Shown here: positions 25,729 to 57,023 of the stretch, in pieces
Layout: the number at the start of each line of letters is the position of its first letter
Position numbering within the stretch: the stretch's first letter is position 1
DNA from: a virus
Length of the DNA stretch: 64,000 bases
IMG/VR virus record: IMGVR_UViG_3300025759_000058
Strand: one strand, 5' to 3'
The notes under the pieces: model-generated
The model's input: only the letters and a program-made list of their open reading frames with translations
The model's database searches: none
What the model was told of the DNA's origin: nothing
Program-made: the position numbers and the translations under genes

Positions 25729-25760
25729 TTTGCCGTTCTGGCAAAAATTTCTTATATTTA
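25729..25760 (+). promoter_or_regulatory. Bacteroidota sigmaA-like promoter candidate for terL
   Basis: TTTG (25729-32), 20-nt spacer, TATATTTA (25753-60); consensus TTTG-N19-21-TAnnTTTG with one mismatch. Confidence 0.4.
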
Positions 25761-25767
25761 GGTTATA

Positions 25768-27345
25768 ATGGCGCAACGTAATATCAAAGAAGTAATTCGC
25801 GAAGAATATAAAAGATGTGCACAAGATCCTGTGCACTTTATGCGCAAATATTGTATTATTCAACATCCTACTAAAGGTAAGATGTATTTTAATTTATATC
25901 CTTTTCAGGCTGCTACGTTAACAACATTACAGCATAATCGTTATAACGTAATCCTTAAATCTAGACAGTTAGGTATTTCAACACTTTCGGCCGGGTTTGT
26001 ATTATGGAACATGTTATTTAAAGATGACTACAATGTTCTTGTCATCGCCACAACACAAGAAGTAGCTAAAAACTTGGTCACCAAAATCAGAGTCATGCAT
26101 GAAAATTTACCATCATGGCTAAAAGGCCGTACTATTGAAGATAACAAACTTTCATTGCGATTTAAGAATGGGTCGCAGGTAAAAGCTGTATCGAGTGCAG
26201 GTACCGCCGGCCGTTCTGAGGCATTGTCATTATTAGTTATTGATGAGGCTGCATTTATTAAAAATATTGAAGAGATATGGGCGTCTGCTCAACAAACATT
26301 GGCTACTGGTGGAGGTTGTGTTGCACTTTCAACGCCTAACGGCACCGGTAACTGGTTTCATAAAACATGGGTTGATGCAGAAGCCGGAGGCCAATTCGTG
26401 CCAACTGAATTGCACTGGACAGTACATCCCGAACGTGACCAATCATGGCGTGATGAACAAACCGGACTATTAGGCGAAAAGATGGCTGCACAAGAATGTG
26501 ACTGCGATTTTATAACATCCGGTCATACGGTAGTCGACGGTCCTATATTACAATGGTATGAACAAACATACGTTAAAGATCCAATTGAGCGCCGCGGATT
26601 TGATTCAAACTACTGGATGTGGGAATATCCAGATTACGGAAAAGACTATGTTGTTGTAGCAGACGTTGCACGCGGCGATGGAGGCGACTACTCTGCATTC
26701 CATGTTATTGAAATTGAAAACATGGTTCAAGTTGCTGAATACAAAGGGAAGATAGGTACTACAGAATATGGTAATATGCTGGTATCTGTTGCAACAGAAT
26801 GGAACAATGCATTATTAGTTATTGAAAATGCAAATATAGGATGGGCGGCTATTCAAGTTGTAATAGATAAAAACTATAATAATTTATATTACTCATATCG
26901 GCAAGATGCATATGTAGATGAAGATATACACTTATCAAAAGGTTACGATCTAAAAAACAAAGCACAAAAAGTTCCGGGATTTTCTACTACATCAAAAACC
27001 AGGCCATTGGTTATTTCAAAACTAGAAACTTATTTTAGAGAAAAGTCGCCAATCGTTCACAGTAAACGACTTATAGATGAATTATTTGTATTTATATGGA
27101 ATGGTAGTAAGGCTGAAGCACAATCTGGTTATAATGATGACCTGGTAATGGCATTTGGTATTGCATTATGGATACGAGATACTGCACTTCGGCTACGGCA
27201 GCAAGGTTTAGAATTATCTAAAAAATCTTTAGGATACTTTGGTAAAGTACAACATGATACTGGTGTATATACTAATAAAAATTCTAATGGTGCATGGGAA
27301 TGGCGTAATGGCTATGGAAAAGATGATCTAACCTGGCTAATATGA
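25768..27345 (+). CDS. terL: Terminase large subunit (gp17-like)
   Basis: KSRQLGIS Walker A, LLVIDEAAF Walker B, STPNG coupling motif, DVARG and DDLVMA nuclease motifs. Confidence 0.95.
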   Translation: MAQRNIKEVIREEYKRCAQDPVHFMRKYCIIQHPTKGKMYFNLYPFQAATLTTLQHNRYNVILKSRQLGISTLSAGFVLWNMLFKDDYNVLVIATTQEVAKNLVTKIRVMHENLPSWLKGRTIEDNKLSLRFKNGSQVKAVSSAGTAGRSEALSLLVIDEAAFIKNIEEIWASAQQTLATGGGCVALSTPNGTGNWFHKTWVDAEAGGQFVPTELHWTVHPERDQSWRDEQTGLLGEKMAAQECDCDFITSGHTVVDGPILQWYEQTYVKDPIERRGFDSNYWMWEYPDYGKDYVVVADVARGDGGDYSAFHVIEIENMVQVAEYKGKIGTTEYGNMLVSVATEWNNALLVIENANIGWAAIQVVIDKNYNNLYYSYRQDAYVDEDIHLSKGYDLKNKAQKVPGFSTTSKTRPLVISKLETYFREKSPIVHSKRLIDELFVFIWNGSKAEAQSGYNDDLVMAFGIALWIRDTALRLRQQGLELSKKSLGYFGKVQHDTGVYTNKNSNGAWEWRNGYGKDDLTWLI

Positions 27346-32029: not shown

Positions 32030-32635
32030 ATGTCTAAAACATTATTAGTCGATTATACATTATTTGAAGTATCACCTCAGCAAATAAATGAGTCAATGAC
32101 TCAAAACAATGGCCGTTTAATTGTATCTGGCGTATTGCAACGGGCTGAGGCTAAGAATCAGAATGGACGTATTTATCCTAGAGAAACATTAGTACGTGAA
32201 GCAAAAAAATATTCTGACTCATTTATTGCAGAAAAGCGTGCATTAGGAGAATTAGATCATCCCGATTCATCCGTTGTTAATCTTAATAATGTTTCTCATA
32301 ATGTTTTAGAAATGGCGTGGGCAGGAAATGACCTTGTAGGAAAGGTTGAGGTATTATCGACGCCTTCAGGAAATATTCTTAAAGAGTTATTTAAGTCTGG
32401 TATTCGTTTAGGCATTTCATCTCGCGGTATGGGGTCTGTTAAAGAAGTAATGAAAGAGGGCGAAAATACATTAGAAGTGCAACCTGACTTTGAATTAATT
32501 GCTTTTGATTTTGTATCAAATCCATCTACTCATGGCGCATTTTTGTCGCCGGTTAATGAATCAGTAAATAAAGTTACGAACAATATGTATGGAACAGTTG
32601 ATCGTATAATTACTGATATCATTAGAGAGTTTTGA
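32030..32635 (+). CDS. Prohead protease (gp21-like)
   Basis: NQNGRIYP, ALGELDHP, VSH, TPSG, GISSRGMGS, DFVSNPS. Confidence 0.95.
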   Translation: MSKTLLVDYTLFEVSPQQINESMTQNNGRLIVSGVLQRAEAKNQNGRIYPRETLVREAKKYSDSFIAEKRALGELDHPDSSVVNLNNVSHNVLEMAWAGNDLVGKVEVLSTPSGNILKELFKSGIRLGISSRGMGSVKEVMKEGENTLEVQPDFELIAFDFVSNPSTHGAFLSPVNESVNKVTNNMYGTVDRIITDIIREF

Positions 32636-32901
32636 TGAAATTACCAATATCGTTTGATCAATTTACAAAAAATCCTGTCTCGGCAATTGCATTTGTTGCT
32701 TTAGGCGTTATAGGGTATTTGTATGTCGATATGATTAAAGTACATGAAGCACAGTTAACTAACTTAGACCGAACATGTACACAGCGCATTAATGACCATA
32801 AAGAGCGAATTGAGTCATTAGAAGAAACAGTAGTCCGTTATGAGGATAAGTTAGACCAAATAAATGATAAGTTACTCAAATGTTTAGGACAAGACAATTA
32901 A
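32635..32901 (+). CDS. Single-TM + coiled-coil membrane protein (i-spanin-like candidate)
   Basis: AIAFVALGVIGYLYV TM then heptads with 2 Cys; TGATG-coupled to the protease. Confidence 0.5.
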   Translation: MKLPISFDQFTKNPVSAIAFVALGVIGYLYVDMIKVHEAQLTNLDRTCTQRINDHKERIESLEETVVRYEDKLDQINDKLLKCLGQDN

Positions 32902-33437
32902 TAATAGCTAGTGCACTTATATTAATAGGATGTAGTGAGCAACTCGAATCGCCTCAATATTTCAGCACGGAGCCAGAGATAGTTGATTCGATCCAAACTA
33001 AAAACCAATGGGAAGGATTGTCTAGTATAGATGCTACATTAGCTATGGCAGACGAGGTAATGGCTAAACAGATGGAAGAAGAACGCCGTACACAAAATAC
33101 TATAATTAGATTACGTACTACTGTGACTAGCGAAGAGGCTATAATAGATTCATTGCGGTCTTCAATAAGTTTTCGTGATAGTTTAATAAATCAATTAGGT
33201 TCTATACAAAAAACGCAACATGCGAGTATAGTAAATTTACGTGAAGAATTGCAACATAGGCAACATATATGTACTACAGAATGTACACCTACAATATTCC
33301 AATTAAAAAATGAAAATAAACAATTATTAAATTATATACAAGAGTTACAGAGTCAAATCGAAATAATGGATTCGTTATTATTAGATAACAGAAAAACGAG
33401 AAAAATCTATGAACCTACTACCGGAAGATCTTTTTGA
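32880..33437 (+). CDS. Lipoprotein with coiled coils (o-spanin-like candidate)
   Basis: MFRTRQLIIASALILIG-C lipobox; overlaps the 3' end of the preceding TM gene. Confidence 0.55.
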   Translation: MFRTRQLIIASALILIGCSEQLESPQYFSTEPEIVDSIQTKNQWEGLSSIDATLAMADEVMAKQMEEERRTQNTIIRLRTTVTSEEAIIDSLRSSISFRDSLINQLGSIQKTQHASIVNLREELQHRQHICTTECTPTIFQLKNENKQLLNYIQELQSQIEIMDSLLLDNRKTRKIYEPTTGRSF

Positions 33438-33525
33438 TTTACCAGAATTTAAAGTACTACCATGGTATAAAAGATTTTGGATTAGATTAAAGGTAGCATT
33501 TTTTACTTTTAACTCTTATATGTGA
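33409..33525 (+). CDS. 38-aa micro-ORF absent from the ORF track
   Basis: MNLLPEDLFDLPEFKVLPWYKRFWIRLKVAFFTFNSYM*; fills the gap and its TGA overlaps the holin ATG (TGATG). Confidence 0.6.
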   Translation: MNLLPEDLFDLPEFKVLPWYKRFWIRLKVAFFTFNSYM

Positions 33526-33941
33526 TGACTAAATCTACAACTATTATAATAGGCCTTACATCGACATTAAGTTTTTTATGTTCATATTTTTTAAACTTGA
33601 CATTAGATAATGTTGAACAGTTTTTAGGTATAGCATGTGTCGTTTTATTAGATGGCTTTTTTGGAATTATTGCTGGTACAAAAAGAGAAGGATTTAAAAC
33701 TTTTAAAGCCCTTAGTGTACTTCGAACATTAGCAGTATGGTGGATTATCTTAGGAGCTATTCTAGCGGTAGAACAAGGATTTGTAGGTGCCGGATGGTTA
33801 TCAGAAACTATTATAATTCCATTTTTACTATTTCAAATTATAAGCGCTCTTAAAAATGCCTCAATGGCTGGTTTTATTAAAATGGATTTGTTAAATCAAA
33901 TCTTAGATAAAATTGACAATCATAAAGGTATTAGAAAATGA
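33525..33941 (+). CDS. Holin (phage holin 4_1/TcdE-like)
   Basis: 3-4 TM segments; LLDGFFGIIAG and QIISALKNASMAG resemble the D..TG / E..S..EN...G pattern; charged C-tail. Confidence 0.65.
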   Translation: MTKSTTIIIGLTSTLSFLCSYFLNLTLDNVEQFLGIACVVLLDGFFGIIAGTKREGFKTFKALSVLRTLAVWWIILGAILAVEQGFVGAGWLSETIIIPFLLFQIISALKNASMAGFIKMDLLNQILDKIDNHKGIRK

Positions 33942-34126
33942 AAAATTGGACTTCGGTTAGAGCAGTATATTTGCTCATGTCAATTGTGTTATTAATTGGC
34001 TTTAGTTTAAAAAATTGGTGGATAGTATTATTTGTAATAACAATGCTTCAAGTTGGAGTATGGACTAAGTTTTGCCCTTCTAAATGGTTATTTGAAAAAA
34101 TAGGCCTGCAGAAGAGCAAACTTTAA
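33938..34126 (+). CDS. DUF2892/YgaP-like two-TM membrane protein
   Basis: R.VY...TM-TM then TKFCPSKWLFEKIG (FCP motif). Confidence 0.7.
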   Translation: MKNWTSVRAVYLLMSIVLLIGFSLKNWWIVLFVITMLQVGVWTKFCPSKWLFEKIGLQKSKL

Positions 34127-35391
34127 TGTCATTAAATTTTTTAAACATATCATTACGCTCTAAAATTTGTTTAGTGTGCGCTACGCTAATAATGCTTAGC
34201 TTCTTTGTAGTTAAGACATTATTATTGATGGAAGTGTTTGATTATTCAGAATTTACAAATTGGTATGAATATTTGTCAGTTATTTTATTTATGCCACCTT
34301 TTTTTACCGTCGTTTCTGAATTTCTTTCAAAAGCTAAAAAAGAAGTAGCCGTTAAAGCTGATTTAGAATCATTATTAAATGAATCTTGTTTAGTATCTAA
34401 AGCAGATGCGCGAGGCAAAATTACATATGTAAATGATAAATTTGTTGAAATATCAAAGTATTCACGTGAAGAGTTAATAGGACAAGATCACGTTCTATTA
34501 AACTCAGGTGTACAAGATAAACAGTTTTGGGTAGATATGTACAAAACTGTCTTGCGAGATAAACAAATCTGGAATAAGTTTGTTACTAACGTCGATAAAC
34601 ATGGCAAACATTATATCGTTAATTCTTGGATCATAGCTCATTTCGATGAAAAGGATAAGCTTAGAGGGTTTACATCTGTCCGGCAAGATGTAACTGAACT
34701 AGTTAATACATTAGAAGCTATTAAACAAAAAGATGTTTATTTAGAACATGCCGCAAAGATTATTAGACATGATATGCATTCTGGTATTAATACGTATTTA
34801 CCCCGGGGCATTAAATCATTAAAACGTAGATTGAATGATGAACAAATTAAAAAGTTACGTATACAAGCACCATTACAATTAATTCAAGATGGATTACATC
34901 ATGCTCAAAAAGTATACGCTGGCGTGTATGAGTTTACTAATCTAGTTAAGCATAACGCCCAAATGTCTAAACAAGCATGTGATATAAAATTTATATTAGA
35001 AGACTATTTACGTTTAACGGCGTATAAGAATCAAGTAATATTAGATGATAATCTGCCTAAAGATTTGCATGTCAATGAAGCTTTGTTTTGTACGGCATTA
35101 GATAATCTAATACGAAATGGGTTAAAGTATAATGATTCTAAAACAAAGTACGTAAAAATATATTCAGAGTTTAAACAAGGTCAACAATATTTATGTATAG
35201 AAGATAATGGCCGCGGCATGTCTCAAGAAGAGTTTGAGGTACTGTCTAAGCCATATCAGAGAAAAGAAGGCCAGAAAGAAGAAGGTACGGGTTTAGGGTT
35301 AAACATATGTATTGAAATCTTAAAGGAGCATGGTTTTGAAATTATTTCAAATAAATTAGATGTTGGAACTAAGATAACGGTAAAAATATGA
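34126..35391 (+). CDS. Membrane-bound PAS/PAC sensor histidine kinase
   Basis: 2 TM; PAS (ADARGKITYVNDKFVEISKYSREELIGQDH..LNSG...RQDVTE); H-box IRHDMHS; N-box DNLIRNGLKY; G1 EDNGRGM; G2 GTGLGL. Confidence 0.93.
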   Translation: MSLNFLNISLRSKICLVCATLIMLSFFVVKTLLLMEVFDYSEFTNWYEYLSVILFMPPFFTVVSEFLSKAKKEVAVKADLESLLNESCLVSKADARGKITYVNDKFVEISKYSREELIGQDHVLLNSGVQDKQFWVDMYKTVLRDKQIWNKFVTNVDKHGKHYIVNSWIIAHFDEKDKLRGFTSVRQDVTELVNTLEAIKQKDVYLEHAAKIIRHDMHSGINTYLPRGIKSLKRRLNDEQIKKLRIQAPLQLIQDGLHHAQKVYAGVYEFTNLVKHNAQMSKQACDIKFILEDYLRLTAYKNQVILDDNLPKDLHVNEALFCTALDNLIRNGLKYNDSKTKYVKIYSEFKQGQQYLCIEDNGRGMSQEEFEVLSKPYQRKEGQKEEGTGLGLNICIEILKEHGFEIISNKLDVGTKITVKI

Positions 35392-35825
35392 TTAATACAT
35401 TAATGTTAATAGATGATGAAAATTTATTTCATCTTGTCTTTGAGGATGCATGTTCATTGTTAGATATGGCATTGTCGATAGAAGCATTAGATAGCTCGGA
35501 TGAAGCAGATAAAAAATTCAAAGAATGGTTTCCGGACGATCCGAATCACGAACGACCCGAATGTGTGTTTGTAGACTTAAATATTATTGGTTCTTCTATG
35601 GACGGAATCGAAACTATTAGAAAAATAAATACTGACTATGGTAATGGTTGTGTAATTGGTATTATTTCATCATCTGAAGACGAAGAAGAAATTGCCAAAG
35701 CAAAAGCAGTAGGAGCTCAATTTTGGATTATTAAGTCCGATGATATAGAACCTAGGTTAGAGTCGTTTATGGAAGATTATAATGGATATGTTAATAAAAC
35801 AGCTCCATTTAAAGTATATAGATAA
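35388..35825 (+). CDS. Single-domain response regulator (receiver only)
   Basis: LMLIDDE acidic pocket, FVDLN phospho-acceptor Asp, DGIE, ISSS, WIIK. Confidence 0.9.
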   Translation: MINTLMLIDDENLFHLVFEDACSLLDMALSIEALDSSDEADKKFKEWFPDDPNHERPECVFVDLNIIGSSMDGIETIRKINTDYGNGCVIGIISSSEDEEEIAKAKAVGAQFWIIKSDDIEPRLESFMEDYNGYVNKTAPFKVYR

Positions 35826-36421
35826 TGATTGAAATAACAGAACATACTAGGAATGTTCTACTCGAGGTTGCTAAAAAGAAAAAAATCTACGTAGAAGGAA
35901 GTTTCTTAAAAATTTTAAAAGCACCAAAAGGTGATACAGAGTTCGAAGACTACCTTACATTATGTAAAGAAAAAGATGTTGCAGCTCGTAGAAAACGAAT
36001 GGAAGTTGCAAAAGAAGTGCAGCAACAAAATAAAGAGCTTGAAGCAGCTGCAAAGAAGAATTCAAATTTAATGACTGAACTGCAATCGGCATTAGACGAG
36101 ACAAAACGATCTGAAGAAGAAGCGAATGAGTTACGACGTCAAGCAGAACAATTGCGAGACCAAGCAGTAAATGATTTAGATATTTTGCAAAAACGTACAC
36201 AGTTTGAGTTAATAGGAACGATTGTACGTAGTGCATTATATGTTATTATTGGCGTTGGGTTATTAACAACGGCATTATATGTTTATGTAATGTCGCAAGG
36301 TTTTGATTCTAAAATCATAGAATCGACATGGTCTAATTTATTTGGTATACTTTTGACAAATTCATTTAGTATTGTAGGTACTATTATGGGAGTCAAGTAT
36401 GCTACAGATAAGGAAAAGTGA
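35825..36421 (+). CDS. Coiled-coil protein with two C-terminal TM helices
   Basis: Long heptad region then ALYVIIGVGLLTTALYVYV and LFGILLTNSFSIVGTIMGV; TAATG-coupled to the RR. Confidence 0.7.
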   Translation: MIEITEHTRNVLLEVAKKKKIYVEGSFLKILKAPKGDTEFEDYLTLCKEKDVAARRKRMEVAKEVQQQNKELEAAAKKNSNLMTELQSALDETKRSEEEANELRRQAEQLRDQAVNDLDILQKRTQFELIGTIVRSALYVIIGVGLLTTALYVYVMSQGFDSKIIESTWSNLFGILLTNSFSIVGTIMGVKYATDKEK

Positions 36422-36801
36422 TGTATGAATATAATGCAATAGTTGATAGAGTCATCGACGGTGATACTATTGATTGTACGATAGATTTAGGCTTTCGTAC
36501 ATGGAAAAAAATACGCGTAAGGATGGAAGGAATTAATACACCGGAATCTAGAACACGTGATTTAGAAGAAAAGGCTAGAGGAAAAGCTGCCGCGGCTCGT
36601 TTAGAAGAAATACTTAATTTAAACAATAACAAGTGTGTGCTGAAGGTATCTGGTATAGGTAAATTTGGAAGGGCGTTAGCTTCTGTCTTTGTCACCTCAT
36701 TATCGCCGATTGACGGTCCTTCGTCATTGACATTAATTAACGTAAATAAACAATTGATTGAAGAGGGCCATGCTGTAGAATATCACGGTGGTAAACGATA
36801 A
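36421..36801 (+). CDS. Thermonuclease (SNase family)
   Basis: RVIDGDTI, RMEGINTPE, GKFGRALA, VNKQLIEEGHA; no signal peptide. Confidence 0.9.
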   Translation: MYEYNAIVDRVIDGDTIDCTIDLGFRTWKKIRVRMEGINTPESRTRDLEEKARGKAAAARLEEILNLNNNKCVLKVSGIGKFGRALASVFVTSLSPIDGPSSLTLINVNKQLIEEGHAVEYHGGKR

Positions 36802-37877: not shown

Positions 37878-37889
37878 TAAACATTTTTT

Positions 37890-37919
37890 TTGTACTTTGA
37901 AAAAACGTTATTATATTTA
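37890..37919 (+). promoter_or_regulatory. Bacteroidota sigmaA-like promoter candidate overlapping an ATATTTAT motif, upstream of bS21
   Basis: TTG (37890-92), 19-nt spacer, TATATTTA (37912-19). Confidence 0.45.
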
Positions 37920-37943
37920 TAGTATAAACTAAACTAGTTATAA

Positions 37944-38195
37944 ATGAATTCAAAACAGTACAAGAAGCATCAAGCTATTTTACCTGGCGCCGGCATCGGC
38001 GTCCGGTTAACTTCCGGAAAAGATCGCAAATCAAATATTGAACGTGCACTGCGAGACTGGAAAAAGCAAGTTAAAGATGCCGGCATAATAACGGCATTAA
38101 AAAATAGAATGCAATACGAAAAGCCATCAGTGACTAGACGTATTGCTAAAAAGAAAGCTAGATATATAGCAAAAATTCAATCAGAACAAAATTAA
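37944..38195 (+). CDS. rpsU: Phage-encoded 30S ribosomal protein bS21
   Basis: NIERALRDWKKQVKDAGII..LK.R..YEKPSVTRR...KKARY matches the S21 pattern. Confidence 0.88.
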   Translation: MNSKQYKKHQAILPGAGIGVRLTSGKDRKSNIERALRDWKKQVKDAGIITALKNRMQYEKPSVTRRIAKKKARYIAKIQSEQN

Positions 38196-38208
38196 AGGAG
38201 AAATAGAT

Positions 38209-38454
38209 ATGAACCAAGCAAAAGTAATGGGCATTCTTAGACACACCTTGACATTCTTAGGTGGTGTGTTAATAACTCAAGGAGTTATCGACGAATCATT
38301 GTACACTGAATTATTCGGTGCAATTATGACATTAGTTGGTGGTGTATGGTCTGTGATCGATAAAAAGACTGTTGAAGCCGTCGAAGATGTTGTAGAAAAT
38401 GTCAAAGAAAAAGTTGATGAGGTTAAAGCAAAAGTAAGTCGTAAACGTAAATAA
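38209..38454 (+). CDS. Small two-TM putative holin (Pam3-gp28-like)
   Basis: GILRHTLTFLGGVLIT.G...GAIMTLVGGVWSVIDK. Confidence 0.65.
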   Translation: MNQAKVMGILRHTLTFLGGVLITQGVIDESLYTELFGAIMTLVGGVWSVIDKKTVEAVEDVVENVKEKVDEVKAKVSRKRK

Positions 38455-38475
38455 TCATATTACGATAAAAATAAG

Positions 38476-38500
38476 AAAGGCGCCTTCGGGCGTCTTTTTT
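38476..38500 (+). terminator. Rho-independent terminator, cUUCGg loop
   Basis: AAAGGCGCC-TTCG-GGCGTCTTTTTT. Confidence 0.85.
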
Positions 38501-38650
38501 ACTATATAAATGAGTGGTTTTCTTGCATTGTGTATAATTATAATTGACAATTGATACTACGTATGAAAACGTAGTCCCTGAAATATTAATTACTTTAATA
38601 TTGAGATTAAAAATAATCTCAGTTCCCCAATCAAATATTAGGAGACAAAA

Positions 38651-39544
38651 ATGAATGACCTTTTAAAGGAGGCCATTGCCGACGCAAAAGCTGTGCGTGA
38701 AACTGCAATGGCAAATGCAAAAATTGCATTAGAAGAGGCCTTCACTCCCAGACTCCAAAGCATGTTATCTGCTAAATTAGCCGAAGAAGAAGAGTTAGAA
38801 GAAGAGGACGACGATGTAGTTGCTGAGCCAGCTGCAGAGCCAGTCGCTGAACCTGCTCCCGAAGCTCCGGTTGAGGAAGAAGAGGATATACCTATGGATG
38901 AAGGCGAGTATGAAGACACTATGGAAGAAGAGGAAGATATGGACCTCGAGGAAGAAGATGATATGGACTTAGAAGAAATCATCAGAGAGCTTGAAGGAGA
39001 AATGGAAGCTGACGAAGAACCTGTTGCCGAAGGCGAGGGTGAAGACGATGAGCCTGTTTCTGAAGGCGAAGGTGAAGAAGAAGAGACTGTATCCGAAGGT
39101 GATGATGAAGAAGTTTCAATCGACGAAATTATCAAAGCATTGCGTGAAGAGGACGGAGAGGAAGAGGAGCCAGTAGCGGAAGCTGAAGATAAGGCCGAAG
39201 AATTGGAAGAAGCTTATCAAGTCATCAAATTCTTAAAGTCTAAAATTAACGAAGTAAATCTTCTTAATGCAAAGTTGTTGTTCTCTAACAAGTTGTTTAG
39301 AAATTATTCATTGAACGAAAACCAAAAGGTTAAAGTTATTGAAAATTTCGATCGCGCACGTACGTTGCGTGAAGTAAAGTTAGTTTACAGCACATTAGCT
39401 GAATCGTTTATTACGACTAAAGCTAAAAGACAAATTAAAGAAAGCTATGCATCTAAGCCAACGCCTTCTACAAGACCATCTAAGCAGGTGATCAATGAAG
39501 GTAATGATTTAGCTGCTCGCTGGAAAAAATTAGCTAACATTTAA
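38651..39544 (+). CDS. Prohead core/scaffold protein (gp22-like)
   Basis: Highly acidic with many x-x-E repeats, immediately upstream of MCP, AGGAG SD. Confidence 0.8.
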   Translation: MNDLLKEAIADAKAVRETAMANAKIALEEAFTPRLQSMLSAKLAEEEELEEEDDDVVAEPAAEPVAEPAPEAPVEEEEDIPMDEGEYEDTMEEEEDMDLEEEDDMDLEEIIRELEGEMEADEEPVAEGEGEDDEPVSEGEGEEEETVSEGDDEEVSIDEIIKALREEDGEEEEPVAEAEDKAEELEEAYQVIKFLKSKINEVNLLNAKLLFSNKLFRNYSLNENQKVKVIENFDRARTLREVKLVYSTLAESFITTKAKRQIKESYASKPTPSTRPSKQVINEGNDLAARWKKLANI

Positions 39545-39561
39545 TCACGGAGATTATTAAA

Positions 39562-41274
39562 ATGAACGTAAGCTCATTATTACCTACCGATGCAATGGCT
39601 AACCAAAATGCGGCTTCACTTCAATTAGAAAAGAAGTGGGAAAAGACCGGTCTTTTGGAAGGTATTGCTTCTGAGGTAGACAGAAAAGGAATGGCCGTCC
39701 TTTTAGAAAACCAGGCCAAGCAACTCGTATCAGAAGTTAACAATACTGGTACTGGTGCAAGCGATGAACAATGGGCGGGTGTTGCTCTTCCATTAGTACG
39801 TAGAATTTTTGCTGAAATTGCTGCAAAAGATTTCGTATCAGTTCAACCTATGAACCTTCCTTCCGGACTCGTATTCTACTTGGACTTCAAGTATGGTACT
39901 GCTCAAGGAACTAACGGTTTCAATGGCTCAACAGGTAATGACTTCTTAACTAGCCAAGGTAGAACATCTCAAGCCGATTCTGTATTTGGTATTACCGATG
40001 CAGGTGACTTAGGTACATCTGCTGCTGGAGGAGCTGCTCCTTCTGAAGGTTTATATGGTGCAGGTCGATTTGGATATACAATCAATGATGCTACTGAAAT
40101 TGTTGCAGTAAGCACTGGTTCATATGATCCATTTACTGCTACCTTTACTGAAGGCGGTGCTGCATTGACTGGATTGCAATTAGACAAGTTCACTAACTTT
40201 AATGCAGAGTTTTCTGCTAGTGCAGCTGCTAATACTAGAGCATACCAAGTTGTTCGTGTTACCAAGGCAGATTTAACTGCTCCAGATACTAATGGTATTA
40301 GAGCATTTAACTTGTCAGGTTCTGGTATTACTAATATCGTTCCTGAATTTACTCGTCAAGATTCAACGCACATCTACTTCTTAGCTCAAACTGCTTCAAC
40401 TCCTGTTGTAACAGGTGCGGATGCAGTTGTCGTTGCTTATCACAAGCAGCCTGCAGACAATTCTAGAGGCGATTTTGAAGATACAACTGGCGGTAACTTA
40501 ACTGATTCAACGATCCTCGATATTCCAGAAATCAATTTGGAAATGAGAAGTGAGGCAATTGTTGCTAAGACTCGTAAGTTGAAAGCTGTTTGGTCTCCTG
40601 AGTTTGCTCAAGACTTGAACGCTTACCACAGCATTGACGCTGAGGCTGAGTTGACTAGCATGTTGTCTGAGTACGTTTCTCAAGAAATTGACTTGGAACT
40701 TTTAGACATGTTGATTCAGAATGCTCAAACAACTGAGCGTTGGTCTGCAAAAGTTGGATATGAGTTTGATACTACTACCAACACCTTTACTCAAGGTAAT
40801 GCAACTGCTCAAGCTTACAACCAAGGTACTTGGTTCCAAACTTTAGGAACTAAGATCCAAAAGGTAAGCAATAAGATTCACCAATTGACGTTGAGAGGCG
40901 GAGCAAACTTCTTAGTATGTTCTCCGGCTGTTGCAACTATCCTCGAATCTATTCCTGGATATGCTGCTGATACCGACGGTAATAAGACGCAATTTGCAAT
41001 GGGCGTGCAGAAAGTAGGTGCTATCAACAGCAGATTCCAAGTTTACAAGAACCCATATATGACTGAAAATACAATCTTAATGGGTTACAGAGGATCACAG
41101 TTCCTCGAAACTGGTGCTGTTTATGCTCCATACATTCCGCTTATCATGACGCCATTGGTATACGATCCATCTAACTTCACTCCAAGAAAGGGTGTGATGA
41201 CTCGTTATGCCAAGAAGATGGTACGTCCTGAATTCTATGGTAAGGTCTACGTCGGTCACTTGAACGTAGTCTAA
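39562..41274 (+). CDS. Major capsid protein (gp23-like)
   Basis: LLENQ, LVRR, VQPMNLPSGLVFYL, AKTRKLKAVWSPEFAQDL..H.IDAEAEL, YAPYIPL, PRKGVMTRYA. Confidence 0.97.
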   Translation: MNVSSLLPTDAMANQNAASLQLEKKWEKTGLLEGIASEVDRKGMAVLLENQAKQLVSEVNNTGTGASDEQWAGVALPLVRRIFAEIAAKDFVSVQPMNLPSGLVFYLDFKYGTAQGTNGFNGSTGNDFLTSQGRTSQADSVFGITDAGDLGTSAAGGAAPSEGLYGAGRFGYTINDATEIVAVSTGSYDPFTATFTEGGAALTGLQLDKFTNFNAEFSASAAANTRAYQVVRVTKADLTAPDTNGIRAFNLSGSGITNIVPEFTRQDSTHIYFLAQTASTPVVTGADAVVVAYHKQPADNSRGDFEDTTGGNLTDSTILDIPEINLEMRSEAIVAKTRKLKAVWSPEFAQDLNAYHSIDAEAELTSMLSEYVSQEIDLELLDMLIQNAQTTERWSAKVGYEFDTTTNTFTQGNATAQAYNQGTWFQTLGTKIQKVSNKIHQLTLRGGANFLVCSPAVATILESIPGYAADTDGNKTQFAMGVQKVGAINSRFQVYKNPYMTENTILMGYRGSQFLETGAVYAPYIPLIMTPLVYDPSNFTPRKGVMTRYAKKMVRPEFYGKVYVGHLNVV

Positions 41275-41300
41275 TTTATAGAATTAGAATATAACTAGGA

Positions 41301-41326: not shown

Positions 41327-41352
41327 ACATATTTATATAAAATAGGAGTTAC

Positions 41353-53579: not shown

Positions 53580-53650
53580 TAATATTTAAACCGTTAGTTT
53601 GGCTTTGTGATCCTATATTTATATGAAACCATTAATATAGGAGTAACCAC

Positions 53651-55759: not shown

Positions 55760-55802
55760 TAGCGACGGCATATTTATAATAAAGTAAAAAGGAGTAACTA
55801 AG

Positions 55803-56291
55803 ATGGCAGAATTACTTGATCCCACGGAAATCTTTTATACCGCATATGAACCAAAGATGGCAAATCGGTTTATCATGTACATTGAAGGTATTCCGGCATA
55901 TTTGATTAAGGCTGCCTCTCGTCCTTCAATTGACCAAGGTGAGGTTATTTTAGACCACATCAACGTCGAAAGAAAGTTGAAAGGCAAGTCTAGATGGCAA
56001 GATGTAACTGTAACTTTATATGACCCAGTTGTTCCTTCCGGCGCTCAAGCAGTAATGGAATGGATTAGATTACACCACGAGTCTGTAACAGGACGTGATG
56101 GATATAGCGACTTTTATAAAAAAGAAATCACAATGAACTCTTTAGGACCGGTAGGTGATAAAGTTGAAGAGTGGACTCTTAAAGGAGCGTTTATTTCATC
56201 TGCAACGTTTGGTGATATGGATTGGGCAACTGAGGACCCAGTTAATATTGAATTGACACTTAAGTATGATTATGCGATATTGCAATTCTAA
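55803..56291 (+). CDS. Tail tube protein (gp19-like)
   Basis: EPK..NRF, W.DVTVTLYD, EWTLKGAF, L.YDYA; follows sheath. Confidence 0.9.
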   Translation: MAELLDPTEIFYTAYEPKMANRFIMYIEGIPAYLIKAASRPSIDQGEVILDHINVERKLKGKSRWQDVTVTLYDPVVPSGAQAVMEWIRLHHESVTGRDGYSDFYKKEITMNSLGPVGDKVEEWTLKGAFISSATFGDMDWATEDPVNIELTLKYDYAILQF

Positions 56292-56969: not shown

Positions 56970-57023
56970 GTTCGTATAACTTAGCTTTTGCCATATTTAT
57001 AATAAAGTTATTCAGGAGAAATA

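Follow-up and report, generated by a model that had tools for sequence, protein, structure and literature searches.

Among the ribosomal proteins found in viruses, bS21 is the most common. To our knowledge, the published proposals about its role say only that it substitutes for the host protein and favours phage mRNAs, and the feature that would make an mRNA favoured is left unnamed. The question is of particular interest in the class Bacteroidia, whose ribosomes have been reported to be blind to Shine-Dalgarno sequences (SDs) (PMC7797042, PMC9976891); Cellulophaga phages were also reported to be without SD signals (bioRxiv 10.1101/2021.04.21.440840). In the ribosome of Flavobacterium johnsoniae, Tyr54 of bS21 stacks on A1534, and Ile55 touches the sequestered 3' tail of the 16S rRNA (PMC7797042). 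Since F. johnsoniae ribosomes that are free of bS21 have an exposed anti-SD and read SDs (PMC9976891), the bS21 site can be regarded as the control point of SD reading in Bacteroidia. The one F. johnsoniae gene with a strong SD is rpsU, which is read by bS21-free ribosomes and is autoregulated (PMC7797042; PMC9976891).

Many properties of the phage protein have already been published. Phage bS21 itself is known from Pelagibacter phage HTVC008M (Mizuno 2019, PMC6375957), another virus-encoded example, whose host reads SDs and whose protein is weakly similar to the one described here. Basic N-terminal extensions of rpS21 were described in huge phages (Al-Shayeb 2020, PMC7162821), in work that connected them neither with SD-blind hosts nor with how often SDs occur, and the phage studied here is not huge. 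The freshwater Bacteroidetes myoviruses of Chen 2022 (PMC9723584) are similar to our phage in several respects: in the head module, only a few genes separate bS21 from those for the prohead protease and the capsid protein; the residue at the Tyr54 position is aromatic; the N-terminal part has diverged from bacterial bS21; and the phages come from freshwater, have Bacteroidetes as their predicted hosts and were proposed to substitute their bS21 into the ribosomes of these hosts. However, those genomes are 293-331 kb long, compared with about 158 kb here, and in their clades a-e bS21 and the structural genes are encoded on opposite strands, whereas here bS21 shares their strand and forms a unit with a holin gene, so that neither feature of these clades (opposite strand, ~300 kb) is found in this phage. 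The same study did not analyze SDs of phage genes and concluded that phage bS21 works like that of the host. A full-text literature search found no paper on SD use by bS21-encoding phages and no proposal of anti-SD unmasking.

The DNA analyzed here is a stretch of 64,000 nucleotides from IMG/VR virus record IMGVR_UViG_3300025759_000058, hereafter called the window. It comes from a freshwater T4-like myophage with a genome of about 158 kb (one contig carrying it has 158,401 bp). Using exact-protein look-ups, we extended the genome 65 kb upstream of the window, and the merged 128,936 bp contain the window exactly. All genes of the window are on the + strand. Based on PHROGs and Pfam, they include a primase (771), an SbcC-like protein (1643), large virion proteins (4867-25700), TerL (25768), the portal protein (27370), the prohead protease (32030), an SNase-fold nuclease (36418-36801), an acidic scaffold-like protein (38651), a Gp23-type capsid protein (39562), PhoH (41353), the tail sheath protein (53651) and a baseplate-hub-like protein (57024). 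The bS21 gene (37944-38195, + strand, 83 aa) is situated between the prohead protease gene and the scaffold-like and capsid genes, in agreement with a first-pass annotation, made from the sequence alone, that had placed it in the head cluster. An inserted block (32635-36801) separates the prohead protease from bS21 and contains, in addition to the nuclease, a histidine-kinase-like protein (PHROG 'kinase', 34126-35391).

In Microcystis phage Mel-JY01, the slot between the protease and capsid genes is likewise filled by RpsU (L003:17185-17412), which differs in having Lys at position 54, a shorter N-terminus, its own SD, an SD-reading host and only weak similarity to the window protein. As Mel-JY01 has been reported on a cyanobacterium, the slot appears to be conserved across host phyla while the type of protein changes. 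Another T4-like myophage, Flavobacterium phage vB_FspM_immuto (MW353175), is also a relative: its capsid protein is 58% identical, its head module is arranged in the same order, and it has a similar upstream motif (TATTTATA). In contrast, bS21 was not found in its complete genome, and it has practically no SDs (0/46 genes of the late region and 5/83 of the early region, which is below its own background of about 9%).

The product of ORF 37944-38195 matched both Pfam Ribosomal_S21 (PF01165; E 4.9e-12, 45.8 bits, cut-off 27) and NCBIfam TIGR00030 (42 bits, cut-off 28.95). Among solved structures, its best two matches were Bacteroidota-type bS21 chains (9i5v_9 and 7jil_z). In a gap-free phmmer alignment, residues 30-79 pair with positions 10-59 of the F. 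johnsoniae protein (7jil_z), so the phage N-terminus is 20 residues longer, slightly more than the approximately 18 residues proposed before. By the same ungapped alignment, Tyr74-Ile75 (codons 38163-38168, + strand) corresponds to Tyr54-Ile55 of F. johnsoniae; the motif KPSV-x7-KARY is present, and the tyrosine is located where the first-pass annotation had put it. The phage protein belongs to the same family as its F. johnsoniae counterpart and has the same Tyr54-Ile55 contact residues (Jha 2020 PMC7797042; McNutt 2023 PMC9976891). Its C-terminus is of low basicity. In the GenBank phage collection, neither a search for near-identical DNA nor tblastn with bS21 gave a useful match; with E values up to 5, tblastn returned only weak matches to Pelagibacter phages and uncultured phages, and no cultured relative with this type of bS21 was found there.

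The N-terminal extension (residues 1-20, MNSKQYKKHQAILPGAGIGV, 37944-38003, + strand) has a basic tail and, after it, a conserved PG motif. It is missing from cellular Bacteroidota bS21 and is kept in dozens of phage homologues of ~80 aa, which have in common a basic/aromatic extension with a K-rich/HQ/PG motif. An AlphaFold model built with 40 homologues (mean pLDDT 87.6) contains helices at residues 28-46, 48-56 and 61-82, and the two usual helices of the bS21 fold are present; a short extra helix was predicted with less confidence within the extension (residues 3-10, pLDDT 71-76). The ORF encodes a Bacteroidota-type phage bS21 in which Tyr54-Ile55 is kept and a conserved basic N-extension is added.

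To score SDs, we took the longest ORF with its first start codon and asked for AGGA, GGAG or GAGG ending 3-13 nt upstream of the start. Under this rule, 27 of the 63 window genes (about 44%) bear an SD, with a sharp peak of motif positions at -14 to -9. This is far above chance, as the same motifs precede 5.1% of the remaining ATGs, and for random positions the figure is 6.5%. The T4 late region gave 25/52 (48%) under the same rule; SD use in this phage is at the level of T4, a classic phage of an SD-reading host. Six SDs singled out in the first-pass annotation are all AGGAG or GGAG located 4-9 nt before an ATG (all + strand): AGGAG at 38639-38643 for the scaffold-like gene (ATG 38651), GGAG at 39549-39552 for the major capsid gene (ATG 39562), and AGGAG at 41344-41348 for phoH (ATG 41353, behind the late motif), at 53639-53643 for the tail sheath gene (ATG 53651), at 55790-55794 for the gene at 55803 and at 57014-57018 for the baseplate-hub-like gene (ATG 57024).

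The same annotation had assigned SDs to late genes. Their enrichment there was confirmed (about twice as frequent), but a restriction to late genes was not, as 21% of genes from the early part of the upstream extension (-65 to -39 kb) also have an SD, and the switch is not clean. At 42-64 kb the fraction is 62%, and that of SDs of at least 5 bases increases from 8% in the early part to 35%. The strongest SD of the 129 kb, TAAGGAGGT with an 8-nt spacer, belongs to hsp20 (L185:5147-5548, about 22 kb before the window). A search of the 129 kb for a decoy-like long copy of the rpsU-type extended SD revealed nothing longer than 9 nt.

Genes in this genome can also be sorted by the promoter in front of them. 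The + strand of the 129 kb contains ten copies of TTTG-N19/20-TAT[AC]TTTA, which is the -33/-7 promoter layout of Bacteroidota except that the last base is A instead of G; other spacings, or the - strand, gave zero to one. None of the nine genes directly behind such host-type promoters has an SD, and several of them are nearly leaderless. The late motif ATATTTAT is followed by an SD-led gene in 17/26 cases (65%), compared with 34/125 for the remaining genes. Many host-type promoters end 3-7 nt before an ATG, both in the upstream extension (-59 kb to -17 kb) and at terL; examples are TATATTTA-agac-ATG, TATCTTTA-tat-ATG and, for terL, TATATTTA-ggttata-ATG (25753-25770). Such spacing implies leaderless or near-leaderless early mRNAs. 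The terL promoter (TTTG-N20-TATATTTA, 25729-25760, + strand) is the second host-type promoter in the window, with 7 nt between its end and the terL start (25768), which has no SD. A promoter spacing test gave no peak in immuto, which served as a positive control, or in the window alone, and it is informative only when early regions are included.

The other host-type promoter in the window, which is Bacteroidota-like, belongs to bS21 (37889-37919, + strand: TTTG at 37889-37892, 19 nt, TATATTTA at 37912-37919). It leaves a leader of about 20 nt without an SD, and no GGA core, as would be expected of an rpsU-type extended SD, occurs within 30 nt before the bS21 ATG. The gene can therefore be expressed by unmodified host RNA polymerase and SD-blind ribosomes, which is as it should be if phage bS21 were a first mover. 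It is followed by a holin gene of the Pam3-gp28 type (38209-38454, + strand; Pfam PF23987, E 4.3e-14) with the SD AGGAG (38196-38200, + strand) and an 8-nt spacer. An intrinsic terminator, a UUCG-loop hairpin followed by a U tract (38472-38501, + strand), closes the unit; its RNA fold has -17.5 kcal/mol (z -5.87), and 0/200 shuffled sequences were equally stable. bS21 and the SD-led holin gene form one transcription unit (37889-38501), from the host-type promoter to the UUCG terminator. The adjacency of bS21 and holin is confined to the closest relatives (L005-L008 and L065) and is not general.

Metatranscriptomes provided four exact contigs (X1-X4), from four freshwater assemblies, over the scaffold and capsid genes (38557-41294). 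Late genes of this phage are present in RNA libraries; bS21 is outside the span of these contigs. All four contigs begin at 38557 or 38564, which may be the 5' end of a late mRNA, although this is a weak hint. A TGTGTATAAT-like box is located at 38530-38538, about 15-25 nt upstream of these starts.

Whether the SDs call for any special explanation depends on the host. A SusC-like TonB receptor of 907 aa (CarbopepD_reg_2, Plug and barrel domains) is encoded about 48-45 kb before the window (L188:7204-9924). Its best 79 genomic relatives are 40-72% identical, mostly over the full length, and every one has a name of Bacteroidota type, two being bins of Balneolaceae; those at 60-72% are mainly Flavobacteriales, including Polaribacter and Robiginitalea chromosomes. 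The receptor gene has an AGGAG SD, and an outer-membrane transporter is an unusual auxiliary gene for a phage. Another gene (L186:7059-9764), located about 30-27 kb upstream of the window, encodes 902 aa with a C-terminal T9SS type B sorting domain (TIGR04131; 40.8 bits against a cut-off of 35), and its product is apparently addressed to the type IX secretion system of the host. Based on the receptor, the T9SS domain, the promoters and the Bacteroidota-type bS21, the host is almost certainly a Flavobacteriales-type member of the class Bacteroidia. The capsid match alone cannot fix the host, because the capsid protein is 58% identical to those of both immuto and Mel-JY01. A cyanobacterial host, suggested by the Mel-JY01 match, was rejected; Mel-JY01 lacks the promoter spacing peak and its bS21 has Lys54.

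An ordinary SD-using host, in which the SDs need no special explanation, would agree with the T4-like SD frequency and with a closest capsid match shared with Mel-JY01. We consider it very improbable, since it does not account for a receptor 60-72% identical to mainly Flavobacteriales genes, for the T9SS sorting domain and Bacteroidota-type promoters in the genome, or for a bS21 of the Bacteroidota type, and since Mel-JY01 itself has neither the promoter peak nor a similar bS21, its own having Lys at 54 and its gene an SD. The possibility of a normal SD-using phylum, which the first-pass annotation had regarded as fatal to its reading, was not borne out by the receptor, the T9SS domain or the promoters.

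To see how SD use is distributed among related phages, we compared 138 IMG/VR loci recruited by bS21 or the capsid protein. In nearly all of the bS21-bearing loci (about 100), the SD fraction is 0.3-0.7, whereas it is 0-0.08 in the bS21-less loci L099, L101-L104 and L136. Among whole or large genomes, the bS21-bearing G001, G002 and G003 have overall SD fractions of 0.20-0.26, and the bS21-less G005 has SDs on 3/128 genes. The orthologous capsid gene has GGAG, AGGA or GGGGA 6-9 nt before its start in every phage with an N-extended bS21, whereas the capsid-gene leaders of immuto, L099, L101, L104, L136 and L139 are A-rich and without an SD. When five bS21-bearing genomes were pooled, SDs were found on 3/33 genes behind host-type promoters and on 54/112 behind the late motif; in bS21-less genomes, late-motif genes had none (0/15).

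On the capsid-protein tree, absence of bS21 was observed in five lineages interspersed among bS21-bearing ones, four of which are nearly without SDs. The fifth, a clade with GC 0.40, has SDs on 17-38% of genes and may infect another kind of host. Two loci, L114 and L139, are SD-poor despite having bS21, and the bS21 of L139 is without the N-extension. A sign test on independent presence/absence pairs from this tree (2-5 pairs) was not significant. Carriage of bS21 goes together with SD use across relatives, with few independent contrasts, and this distribution suggests, but does not prove, that the phage protein re-tunes host ribosomes.

These data also bear on the possibility that the link reflects shared ancestry or ecology only, the SD-rich and SD-free clades differing in other ways. 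SD use would then come from Bacteroidota hosts with a partly accessible anti-SD or from another phage factor, and bS21 would serve as an initiation boost, in ribosome maintenance or as a counter-defence against translation stalling. The small number of contrasts fits such an explanation, as do L114, L139 and the GC 0.40 clade, which deviate one way or the other, and the presence of bS21 in phages of SD-using hosts (Pelagibacter phages and Mel-JY01); Mel-JY01 combines bS21 and SDs in another host phylum, so some uses of bS21 have nothing to do with SD-blindness. We nevertheless regard shared ancestry as a rather unlikely explanation, because four separate bS21-less lineages among bS21-bearing ones are all without SDs, and because not one of 80 distinct phage bS21 genes has an SD, versus 44% of their neighbours, which points to a functional link.

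The lack of an SD on the bS21 gene itself holds for both subtypes of the N-extended protein. The second subtype has Arg at position 54 in a conserved A-I-R-A-E-W motif ('IRAEW') and is carried by L048, L045, L110, L131, L109, L060, L105 and other IMG/VR loci; in one carrier, G002, the promoter spacing peak of Bacteroidota type is clearer than in any other genome, with 18 + 12 sites at N20. SDs were found on 0/66 distinct aromatic-54 genes and 0/14 distinct Arg-54 genes, compared with 44% and 38%, respectively, of all genes in the same loci. Three Mel-JY01-type bS21 genes, which are not N-extended, do have an SD. The phage bS21 gene is the reverse of host rpsU, in that it is SD-less amid SD-led neighbours, and its protein carries the N-extension.

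A reasonable hypothesis is that phage bS21 enters the host 30S subunit at the bS21 site, either by exchange or during assembly. Ribosomes containing it would form the SD-anti-SD helix, which native Bacteroidia ribosomes cannot, and SD-led phage mRNAs, including those for virion proteins, hsp20 and the downstream holin, would gain a private initiation channel. Occupancy of the bS21 site, which in F. johnsoniae decides SD reading, would then do the same here. No bS18 or bS6 homologue was found in complete relatives, and bS21 is therefore the only pocket component that these phages supply. The main objection comes from Tyr54-Ile55, whose retention in this protein and in most relatives predicts continued sequestration and argues against a simple release of the anti-SD. 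Because these residues are kept, we give about an even chance to the proposal that phage bS21 at the host site yields SD-reading ribosomes favouring SD-led phage mRNAs, and retain two competing explanations.

One of these is shared ancestry, considered above. The other follows Chen 2022 in viewing phage bS21 as a mimic of host bS21: the anti-SD would stay sequestered through Tyr54, SD-led genes would be read by bS21-free subunits, and the divergent N-terminal part would favour phage mRNAs or counter host defence. An end to host bS21 synthesis, or removal of the host protein (for example with the help of phage ClpP/ClpS), would enlarge the bS21-free pool. The retained Tyr54-Ile55 is what a mimic would have, and bS21-free F. 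johnsoniae ribosomes do read SDs (PMC9976891). A phage protease acting against host bS21 in bS21 phages was a speculation of McNutt 2023 (PMC9976891), and this genome encodes both ClpP and the adaptor ClpS (L185:9403-9999 and L189:6400-6666). On the other hand, mimicry gives no reason for SD use to track bS21 carriage, extra bS21 would shrink the bS21-free pool, and the Arg-54 subtype has no tyrosine and shows the same SD pattern. We consider this explanation unlikely.

If phage bS21 does produce SD-reading ribosomes, the N-extension, which the first-pass annotation had suspected of being the active element, may be the part responsible. This idea fits the data, since the extension is common to Tyr-type and Arg-type bS21 and the extension-less protein of L139 occurs in an SD-poor phage, but it draws on single cases. 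The basic extension, if placed beside the mRNA exit and SD-helix site, might stabilize the SD-anti-SD helix; alternatively, it might prevent the 16S 3' tail from settling in the bS18/bS6 pocket despite the kept Tyr54. The full proposal, in which bS21 acts through its N-extension to turn SD-blind Bacteroidia ribosomes into SD-reading ones, opening a channel closed to host mRNAs on which holin-dependent lysis timing depends, is tentative, and we put it somewhat short of an even chance. The earlier reading of the locus as ribosome re-specialisation is partly supported, in that its premises regarding host, SD use and co-distribution hold.

What this analysis adds is the link between phage bS21 and SD-led phage genes, together with the consistent lack of an SD on the bS21 gene itself in the N-extended type. 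If SD reading needs phage bS21, then holin synthesis, and hence the timing of lysis, would be coupled to ribosome conversion. The pattern names a measurable mRNA feature, the SD, in a host class in which SD reading is controlled at the bS21 site. Should this reading hold, the phage would offer a clear example from nature of ribosomes re-specialised by a virus through the exchange of a single protein.
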